Of a stretch of 64,000 nt of DNA, positions 48,092-50,202 are shown one piece after another; position 1 is the first letter of the stretch; every line of letters starts with the position of its first letter. The stretch is from the NCBI GenBank assembly GCA_963555755.3, contig OY820905.2, positions 1,376,001-1,440,000 of the forward strand, in the 5' to 3' direction. This stretch comes from Nitrospirales bacterium. GTDB taxonomy: Bacteria; Nitrospirota; Nitrospiria; Nitrospirales; UBA8639. The translations under genes were made by a program, and so were the position numbers. The notes below the pieces were generated by a model, which was given only the letters and a program-made list of their open reading frames with translations, was not told the origin of the DNA and ran no database searches.

Positions 48092-50065
48092 GTAGAGTAG
48101 AGCACTGGTGCTCATCCTGGAGCTGCTCTCGAACGTTTCGGCGCACGCGCCTACTCCGGGCTAGAGCAGTCAGAAATAACCAGCGCTCCCTCATCAAACC
48201 GTGCATGCGGTTTTCTCGCACACGGCTTTCCGATGTTCTTCAGGCCAAGGCATGCGCCGAGCGCCAGCCCGGTCCCACAGGAACCTTGTACAGCCCGTAA
48301 CGCCCGTAAAGATCAGCATGCGGGAAGCGGCCTAGGCCGCTTCGTCGATCCTTCACCTTATGGCGTTTCATCAAGTGAGTTCGCAGCCGGGCTTCCGCAT
48401 GGTTTCTGACCTTGTTCATCGCCAGACTTGAGTTACGATAGTGGAAATAGTTCGCCCACCCTCTCAGGCTGCGATTGACCGTTCCCACGATAGCACTCAA
48501 GGGAATGGCAGTCAGTTCCCGTTGTGTTAGTGCCGTCAGCCTCGCCTTGATTTTCTTCAGCGATGGCTCCGACGGACGAACATTCGGGTACGGTTTCCCA
48601 GAACGTCCCCCTCGACTCAGCTGAATCGTAAAACCCAGGAAGTCGAAGCTCGCTTGGGTGGCGTCCACGATAGTCGTCTTGGTCTCGTTGAGCGTGAGGC
48701 CCAATCGTGCCAGTACGGCTCGCACCACCTTCAGCGGTTCCACGACATCTTTTCGGCACAGCACGACAAAGTCGTCTGCGTAGCGCACGAGGTGCGCTTG
48801 CAGCTTGTCTTTGAGGTGCCGCCGTTGCCATAGCCGATCCAACTGGTGTAGGTAGCAGTTGGCCAATAGCGGTGAGAGCACCCCGCCTTGCGGCGTGCCT
48901 TTGCTGTTGGCATTCCCGCCACCCACACCCCGCTTCACGCCGTTGTCGTCTTCACCAATGACCGGGGCTTTGAGCCACAGCTTGATGAGGTGCAAGATGC
49001 CACCGTCAACAATGCGCTCAGCGACCATGGCCAGCAGCTTGGCATGCGGGATACTGTCGAAGTAGTTCGACAGGTCGGCGTCTATGACGTGGGTGTAGCC
49101 TGCCCAGAGCGTATGGGCAATGTCGTTCACCGCATCATGGGCCGATCGCTTGGGCCGGAATCCGTACGAATTCGCACAGAAGTCGGCTTCAAAGATCGGC
49201 TCGATGATGAGCTTGACTGCCATTTGCGCCACTCGGTCTCGGATCGTCGGGATCCCTAGCGGACGCAGACTGCCGTCCGCTTTGCGTATCATGACGCGCC
49301 GCACCGGTTGGGCTCGGTAGGTCTTGGCTTTCAGATCACGGGCCAATTCCCGCAGAAACGTGTCTACCCCGATTCCACTCTCTATGGCCTTGAAGCTGAT
49401 CCCATCACTACCGGGGCTGCCTCGATTGGCTCGGACAAGCCGCCAGGCATGATTGAGGATATCCTCCTGGCTGATCTTGTCGTAGAGTGCGTAAAAGCGA
49501 TAGGCCGGTTCTTGCTTGGCCTTGGCATACAGCTTCCTCTGCAGCGTCCTGATCGTCTCCGGGGTGGTTAGCGCCATGGCAATCCCCTGATCCTCCGCTC
49601 TTCGGTTGCATGAACAAAGCAGGGTTCCTTCCCTCGACCGGGGTTGTGTTGTCCCTCGGCCTCAAGCGGTACGATGAACCCCTCCGACTCCCGTTCCGGG
49701 CCGCTGTGATTTCGTTGCCTTATACACATTGGTCGGTGTCCTCCCCACCCCCAAAAACGGGTCTCCAGCACTGGGCTATACGTCTTCCAGAACATGCCGT
49801 CCTTGCTACCCCGGGAGTCGATGGGTGTCACTTCCGTTATTCCAGCACCCTTCCAGCGGCCTTCCCCTTCTGACCACAGGGTCGGCGTCTCCACTTTGTT
49901 TACGAGGCTACTCATAGGTTCACTTGCGTTACGGCCTGCTCTTTTGCTGTGTGGAAACTTACGACCCCGCGTTACCACGACGCCGCTTCCTCATGCTACC
50001 AAGGTGTACGGACAATTCCTTGGACGGGACTTTAACCCGCTAGACATACTGCTGTTACTGCGAAC
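48092..50065 (-). mobile_element. group II intron
   Basis: 5' GTTCG at 50065; domain V AAGCCGTGTGCGAGAAAACCGCATGCACGGTTTG; 3' CTCTACTCTAC; rejoined flanks equal the intact site at 34607-34628. Confidence 0.9.
48240..49577 (-). CDS. ltrA: group II intron reverse transcriptase/maturase (no endonuclease domain)
   Basis: LGIPTIRDRVAQ, SYGFRP, GTPQGGVLSPLLAN, RYADD, FDFLGF, GWANYF. Confidence 0.95.
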   Translation of the reverse strand: MALTTPETIRTLQRKLYAKAKQEPAYRFYALYDKISQEDILNHAWRLVRANRGSPGSDGISFKAIESGIGVDTFLRELARDLKAKTYRAQPVRRVMIRKADGSLRPLGIPTIRDRVAQMAVKLIIEPIFEADFCANSYGFRPKRSAHDAVNDIAHTLWAGYTHVIDADLSNYFDSIPHAKLLAMVAERIVDGGILHLIKLWLKAPVIGEDDNGVKRGVGGGNANSKGTPQGGVLSPLLANCYLHQLDRLWQRRHLKDKLQAHLVRYADDFVVLCRKDVVEPLKVVRAVLARLGLTLNETKTTIVDATQASFDFLGFTIQLSRGGRSGKPYPNVRPSEPSLKKIKARLTALTQRELTAIPLSAIVGTVNRSLRGWANYFHYRNSSLAMNKVRNHAEARLRTHLMKRHKVKDRRSGLGRFPHADLYGRYGLYKVPVGPGWRSAHALA

Positions 50066-50202
50066 GGTCAGGTCTTGCAGCAATACATTTTGGTTGACCT
50101 TACACGTGAGGTTCCTGCTTTAACCATTCCTGCAAAAAAAGTATCAATTTCCAAAGGCAGAGAAAACGGCCGTGTTGGGATATGGCATTGCAAGACCTGA
50201 CC

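Follow-up and report, generated by a model that had tools for sequence, protein, structure and literature searches.

How do group II introns whose reverse transcriptase (RT) has no endonuclease domain come to sit in one dispersed motif, and by what route do they enter it? The question is raised by a 64,000-nt stretch of a Nitrospirales genome (the window), in which two related introns, A and B, interrupt copies of a motif that recurs through the stretch: AGAYYTGACCC occurs 12 times against 0.23 expected. The original prediction, made from the window sequence, took a hairpin loop common to both introns for the guide EBS1, saw in them a lineage specialised on the motif and, by analogy with introns that target terminators and attC sites, supposed the motif to be accessible as single-stranded DNA. 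attC sites are targets of class C group II introns. In the sequences below, a caret marks a junction.

Two related introns and a nested third

The features of the window are collected in Table 1. Domains I and V/VI of the window introns exceed the Rfam gathering scores (RF02005, RF00029), and judged by sequence the introns are group II, IIB-like. The 17-mer CCCTGTGGTCAGAAGGG occurs exactly twice in the window, both times on the minus strand, and not once in 100 shuffled window sequences, so the hairpin is indeed identical in A and B. Both copies are the Id3 hairpin of the Rfam group-II-D1D4-6 matches, with a CCCU/AGGG stem of 4 bp and a 9-nt loop, GUGGUCAGA; in relatives, the stem has the compensatory variants CCCA/UGGG, GCCU/AGGC and CCCG/CGGG. 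Domain I folded weakly in minimum-free-energy predictions (z -1.05 and -1.97), which were left out of the evidence.

Table 1. Introns, their recognition elements and IS4 copies in the window
Feature	Position	Strand	Remarks
Intron A, full-length group II, 1974 nt	48092..50065	-	5' end GUUCG, 3' end ...CUCUAC
Intron A, Id3 hairpin	49865..49881	-	EBS1 GGUCAG (GGTCAG in DNA) 49870-49875, delta U 49876
Intron A, EBS3 (G)	49806	-	partner: C at 48091, 3' exon +1
Intron A, delta-prime A	49909	-	position read from window sequence
Intron A, 5' exon	50066..50078	-	TIRYT-type repeat ...CAAGACCTGACC; IBS1 CTGACC 50066-50071
Intron A, RT/maturase, 445 aa	48240..49577	-	Pfam RVT_1 + GIIM
Intron B, ORF-less	3146..5885	-	5' end GCAUG; intron B proper is 5244-5885 plus 3146-3249
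Intron B, Id3 hairpin	5685..5701	-	EBS1 (GGTCAG in DNA) 5690-5695; EBS3 G at 5627
Intron B, 5' exon	5886..5909	-	TTAGTCAACCAAAGATTTGACC; IBS1 TTGACC 5886-5891
Intron C, group II	3250..5243	-	lies within domain V of intron B; its RT is at 3445-4758
Intron-free paralogue of A's flank	34613..34755	-	unsplit CTGACC^CTCAGCC at about 34613-34623
IS4-family element, 1469 bp	46433..47901		inserted in motif, 10-bp duplication AGACCTGACC
Further IS4 copies	50203-51670, 51716-53184		same element

The RT of intron A scores above the TIGR04416 cut-off, and a Pfam scan of it returned RVT_1 and GIIM only, with no endonuclease domain. The expectation that neither RT carries such a domain thus stands for A; B has no RT of its own, the gene taken for it being that of intron C, which lies nested in domain V of B. 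An internal deletion near 5320-5303 has removed the ORF of B. The target of intron C itself is ACGGWY, unlike that of A and B. Intron C uses domain V of other group II introns as its homing site (GCACGGWT^TGATG); it interrupts each of the 7 ORF-less B copies, as well as some copies with an ORF. Three C copies stand head to tail near G000:C1:2160037-2165998 (G000 is the window's genome), and host introns carrying C would require its prior splicing-out. A further group II intron apparently sits at the YADD-coding sequence of these RT genes at G000:C1:6995, 800840 and 3056763.

The 5' ends of A (GTTCG) and B (GCATG) are non-canonical and directly follow the exon ends CTGACC and TTGACC, as had been proposed. 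Three observations agree on these boundaries: the I(i) stems, CAGTA/TGCTG and CCGTC/GACGG, begin five bases inside the introns; the genomic copies have their divergence points exactly at the GTTCG/GCATG ends; and the intron-free paralogue of A's flank runs through the site unsplit. A canonical-looking GTATG/GTGTG 5' end, 16-17 nt inside, was rejected: its bases form stem I(ii), and the copies diverge at GTTCG/GCATG. Relatives, sought with a pattern that left these bases free, begin with GTTCG in 94, GTACG in 44 and GTATG in 8 of the 150 listed pattern matches. The lineage, A and B included, departs from the GUGYG consensus; the non-GUGYG end is a lineage variant and no bar to group II membership, and epsilon/epsilon' showed no clear covariation that would compensate for it. 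Near-identical copies at several sites imply, on sequence grounds, recent mobility of the introns; neither a spliced exon-exon joint nor an empty site was found in four read runs, present as contigs only.

The guide and the exon change together

In the window's genome, YTGACC closes the 5' exon at every junction of A- and B-type copies (17/17; CTGACC in 7, TTGACC in 10), two of the 17 sharing upstream sequence and possibly representing one event. The 3' exon starts with C in 17/17 and with CC in 16, and the loop GTGGTCAGA is present in all 15 copies long enough to show it. The proposed specialisation on the motif is borne out by these junctions. As a control, 12 other intron RT loci in this genome were examined, and YTGACC precedes no candidate start at any of them; nor does it precede those of g3 and of relatives at 45-49% identity, with L060 (49% identity, same loop core) as the exception.

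Relatives were drawn from 79 genome loci through the RT, and from at least 121 metagenome and 7 viral stretches through an intron-internal pattern that includes neither exon nor EBS1 and favours A-type introns. Among the matches listed, 169 5' ends reduced to 150 distinct ones with at least 6 nt of exon and, after removal of 3 false matches, to 147 junctions, 93 of them also with the loop; one of the 7 viral matches fitted the 5'-end pattern and was dropped as false. The intron is present in 1 of 60 close relatives of the host.

Tabulating these junctions confirms the loop as EBS1: across the 93 listed pairs, EBS1 and exon end change together, with pairing at five or more of the six positions in 85. 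At exon position -3, listed relatives with GGT loops have A in 47/48 cases and those with GGA loops T in 28/30; over the 22 EBS1 types of the 93 pairs the mean number of Watson-Crick pairs is 4.72, against 2.58 +/- 0.26 when permuted. An unbiased mutual-information scan (25 exon positions by 373 columns, 88 rows) ranked the EBS1 columns top. On a tree of 95 rows built with the loop masked, 15 changes fall at the T/A position. They supply 7 independent pairs on branches with good support; on average 6.8 of these agree in direction and none disagrees (median p 0.016). At a second covarying EBS1 position the same tree offered no more than 4 such pairs, and the result was not significant. The GGTCAG loop, which the original prediction tied to YTGACC, follows that sequence in 29 of 38 listed relatives and the wobble-compatible YTGATY in 6, with 3 deviating.

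One alignment column pairs with exon position +1 in 50/50 cases (48 G-C, one U-A, one A-T), two of them compensated changes, which identifies it as EBS3. Delta (U in 87/88) and delta' (A in 88/88) are invariant, a pair that is consistent and does not covary. For EBS2, 88 rows gave no covariation with exon positions -7 to -16, the best window reaching 3.2/5 pairs including wobble. The exons of 132 listed relatives show biased composition at -8 to -10 and -13 to -17, although conservation of the repeat itself could account for this. Taken comparatively, the alignments show the pairings EBS1-IBS1 (6 bp) and EBS3-IBS3, and place the insertion point between the second and third C of STSWCC^CC. One relative, L098:1775, combines EBS1 UACGAG and EBS3 U with a different site sequence, GATGGACTCGTA^AAAAGTCCC; full retargeting is possible there.

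The motif is a TIRYT terminal repeat

The consensus of the terminal inverted repeats (TIRs) flanking TIRYT tyrosine transposases is GGGGWSAS (PMC3733652), and TIRYT is equated with TnpA-Y1 subclass 2.1, which has a DnaA-like HTH (PMC6006769). The window's genome contains 17 Y1_Tnp matches; Y1_Tnp is joined by Bac_DnaA_C in 3/3 long proteins scanned, the HTH above cut-off in 2. The same repeats flank the long Y1 genes, with motifs about 40-53 nt ahead of the start and others at the stop or beyond it. The exon of intron B, TTAGTCAACCAAAGATTTGACC, reproduces letter for letter the TIR that lies downstream of the TIRYT gene at G000:C1:761688, and one B copy lies in the repeat about 110 nt before the TIRYT gene at C1:2166780. 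Of 251 genomes sampled from one phylum, 54 contain a 14-mer of the intron A exon, which brackets TIRYT matches as inverted pairs in several other genomes.

Upstream of IBS1, 10/17 genomic sites match local TIRYT ends, compared with 129 of the 1533 YTGACC^C sites in the genome and, when non-coding YTGACC^C sites alone are considered, with 108/517 (p 0.0009); 7/17 have no match to the TIRYT-flanking repeats of their own genome, and 5/17 have few or no look-alikes. A Y1 gene lies upstream in 13 of the 126 listed relatives with at least 250 nt of flank (within 160 nt in 10), where about 0.7 would be expected in 181 kb of flank at this genome's density. The 135 C-strand junctions of listed relatives fit STSWCC exactly in 67 cases and, allowing a single mismatch, in 106, leaving 29 with more than one, so EBS1 varies mostly at the degenerate positions of the repeat consensus. 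These sequence comparisons together show the motif to be the GGGGWSAS terminal repeat of TIRYT genes.

Tandem duplications of the TIR and micro-repeats (TTGACCCCTATT arrays) occur beside TIRYT genes and intron sites at 5886-6100 of the window and at G000:C1:2174400-2174700. The lineage includes ORF-less mini-introns of 662-893 nt in motif sites (L110, L112, L134, L138, L140), and its domain VI varies in length, giving totals of about 1905 versus 1985 nt. Relatives at 45-49% RT identity, from Bacteroidota and others (L067, L068, L071-L073, L075, L077, L079), have 5' ends GTACG/GTGCG and follow another repeated tract, e.g., CTTTGCGTCCTCTG or GTGGGATTTGG, a hint that a sister lineage has specialised on a dispersed repeat of its own.

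Strand preference and access to the repeat

An IS4-family element has entered the same motif. Its copies in the window's genome have exact 10-bp duplications in 21/21 cases, within one mismatch of AGACCTGACC in 19/21; one of its two cuts is at the same bond as the introns and the other 10 nt away, and a strand bias is absent (8/21). DDE transposases such as IS4 act on double-stranded DNA. Since IS4 uses the motif with no strand bias, being targeted is no sign of special single-strandedness. Elsewhere in the window, 37293-43193 (minus strand) encodes a 1966-aa protein with SpvB, FG-GAP, TcdB_midN and RHS domains; DruA-like/IS66 and DDE transposase genes border it.

The introns, by contrast with IS4, are biased. 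On a replication map built from GC skew and dnaA (origin at 2.7-2.9 Mb, terminus near 0.57 Mb), the exon strand runs with the fork, and is thus the lagging-strand template, at 16/19 sites in the window's genome, against a background of 45% for all YTGACC^C sites and 31% for TIR-like sites (p 0.002 against 50%, and 0.011 with three concordant sites discounted as non-independent). Nine other genomes, oriented by local skew (a calibration on the window's genome called 277/300 correctly), gave 20/27 (p 0.01), a few of these sites being fragments. The other strand is used at 3/19 sites here and 7/27 elsewhere. RmInt1 and RmInt2, which are endonuclease-less, use the lagging template (PMC4615759, PMC8914252), and the bias together with the missing endonuclease makes them a better fit than the attC/terminator analogy. 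That analogy fails on two counts: the introns recognise their site through a full 6-bp EBS1 plus EBS3, and the targets show no greater hairpin propensity than the motif's remaining copies. The supposed single-stranded access is compatible with the lagging-template bias, but the targeting from which it had been argued is no proof of it.

A minority of the lineage reads the other strand of the same repeat. The G strand is used by 12 of the 147 listed junctions, 8-9 nt from the usual site (e.g., GGGGTCAGGT^CTTG), and the 8 such members with a readable loop have a rewritten EBS1, such as GUCUGU, ACCUGU or GACCUG. On the best tree, these members fall in two or three spots. A repeated origin of the switch was set aside: the first AU test (p 0.0018) was confounded by L142 inside the clade, and with L142, L177 and L105 removed p rose to 0.107, with 2 changes on the best tree and a single origin not rejected. 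Among TIR-like motifs of G000:C1, the C strand is on the lagging template in only 40/129, so the G strand is the more fork-exposed, which could favour the switch.

A likely guide-directed route and its alternatives

The account we regard as likely is that endonuclease-less introns carry an RNA guide that matches TIRYT repeats and inserts them there, probably by way of single-stranded DNA at the fork and probably with retention at neutral sites. The guide, EBS1 GGWSAS plus EBS3, is complementary to the GGGGWSAS end repeats of TIRYT elements, and the intron would likely reverse-splice into the repeat while this is single-stranded on the lagging-strand template at a replication fork; fork-exposed DNA and Okazaki-primed reverse transcription are suggested by analogy with RmInt1/RmInt2. 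The lineage is likely kept on the repeat as an abundant and harmless intergenic landing site present in both orientations, presumably through selection for neutral sites. In place of EBS2, the protein may contact the exon at -8 to -10, which is purine-rich, and at -13 to -17, which is A/T-rich; ORF-less B copies may be mobilised in trans. Within this account, targeting by lineage-wide guide pairing is well supported by the alignments, and execution at the replication fork is probable.

The missing nuclease might instead be borrowed: an HUH transposase acting at the repeat would open the DNA or leave a priming 3'-OH, and the intron lineage would be a hyperparasite of TIRtrons, with TIRYT replacing its endonuclease. 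The lineage keeps to the repeat even with EBS1 rewritten for the opposite strand, IS4 cuts at the intron bond and 10 nt away, and TIRYT genes are present in 7/8 intron-positive genomes versus 110/243 others (p 0.02; 0.04 without the seed genome), all of which would suit such help. Yet the co-occurrence is weak, its statistic ignoring kinship and genome size, and is to be expected anyway because TIRYT makes the repeats; 113 of the 126 listed relatives have no Y1 match upstream, most insertions being in solo repeats; endonuclease-less introns home without a nicking partner (PMC4615759, PMC8914252); and several origins of the strand switch are unsupported by the AU test. Y1 enzymes likewise favour lagging-strand ssDNA (PMC6006769), so the strand bias cannot separate entry at the fork from assistance by TIRYT. 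On balance, a borrowed nuclease appears unlikely; were it true, the insertion points (GG^GG, and 8-9 nt away) together with the IS4 cuts 10 nt apart would outline the cleavage or binding footprint of TIRYT.

The two remaining explanations concern what is read. Structure-based targeting as in class C, the RNP reading a hairpin or cruciform of paired repeats, would suit repeats that are frequently inverted dimers (PMC3733652), the inverted GGTCAA 34 nt upstream of window intron A and the absence of EBS2 covariation, as in class C. But an inverted partner lies within 150 nt in 5/14 reconstructed sites against 39% of the TIR-like background, the predicted unpaired probability of IBS1 is 0.56 versus 0.54 and 0.49, folding energy at the sites is no stronger, and EBS1 is a full 6-mer acting with EBS3 and delta in IIB-like fashion, all of which makes structural reading very improbable. 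It is doubtful, too, that survivor bias alone is at work, with EBS1 and EBS3 the sole means of recognition, the 7-nt YTGACC^C read anywhere and the insertions in non-coding repeats merely persisting. The lack of EBS2, the 7/17 sites that match no local TIRYT end and the abundance of YTGACC^C sites, of which a crude ORF mask assigns two thirds to coding sequence, lean towards it; against it, the TIR-like enrichment persists relative to non-coding sites, and exon positions beyond the 7 nt are biased, possibly through conservation of the repeat.

Relation to known introns and repeats

The lineage is probably g4 of class F. This assignment is based on sizes, hosts and a table match: L061 (Nitrococcus mobilis Nb-231), an 80% identical relative, has a 162-aa C-terminal fragment, and Table S2 of PMC3552965 lists a 162-aa fragment of this strain as g4. 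Like class F/g4 (Pe.ca.I3; Toro and Martinez-Abarca, 2013, PMC3552965), the introns have an RT-X-only protein of about 445 aa, a length of 1.9-2.0 kb and the same host groups. Two other groups were rejected, g1 as mostly actinobacterial with larger ORFs, and g3 because its member Ni.ha.I1 is only 48% identical, starts with GUGCG and has another EBS1. The accessible text of PMC3552965 reports no target site, insertion or transposase link for g4; relative to that literature, the GUUCG/GUACG/GUAUG/GCAUG ends, the missing EBS2 covariation and the TIR targeting are new. Class F ribozymes splice in vitro, and EBS2 is dispensable (PMC3753933).

RmInt2 and RmInt1 (class D, IIB) resemble the lineage in being endonuclease-less and biased to the lagging template (PMC4615759, PMC8914252), and RmInt2 also in residing in the inverted repeats of ISRm17, which puts its target on either strand (PMC4615759). 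RmInt2, however, is a single intron in a single IS and uses EBS2, whereas here a multi-phylum lineage follows a degenerate repeat family of HUH elements, strand switch included. Class C introns share the lineage-wide specialisation on dispersed non-coding DNA and the absence of EBS2, but read a stem-loop with a short EBS1 (PMC4748821), unlike the 6-nt EBS1 plus EBS3 found here with no hairpin signal.

The target repeat, GGGGWSAS, belongs to TIRtrons/TIRYT, that is, TnpA-Y1 subclass 2.1 or RAYT group 1; it flanks genes for Y1 plus a DnaA-like HTH and is dispersed as singles, dimers and clusters (PMC3733652, PMC6006769, PMC5581495). The accessible text of these three papers describes no intron or IS that targets TIRtron repeats, and the word "intron" is absent from PMC3733652. 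The full texts searched, in which the terms TIRYT and TIRtron are scarce, contain no link between group II introns and TIRtron ends; subscription papers, the Zimmerly intron database and supplements could differ. Insertion sequences that target REPs (PMC1525189) likewise use a Y1-transposase-associated repeat as a safe landing site, as IS4 does here. These are DNA transposons, and the REPs they enter are palindromic; the introns are RNA-guided retroelements and occupy TIRs.

TIRtron ends thus join terminators and attC sites as a third target of lineage-wide specialisation of bacterial group II introns, one that works via guide pairing, not hairpin reading, and that leaves a natural record of guide-target co-change across phyla. 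A target is also named for an intron class that lacks a target description in the accessible text of PMC3552965. A 7-nt guide, no EBS2 and non-GUGYG ends bear on ribozyme mechanism and targetron design, and the TIRtron end, as a common landing pad for a retroelement and IS4, offers a handle on the biochemistry of TIRYT enzymes.
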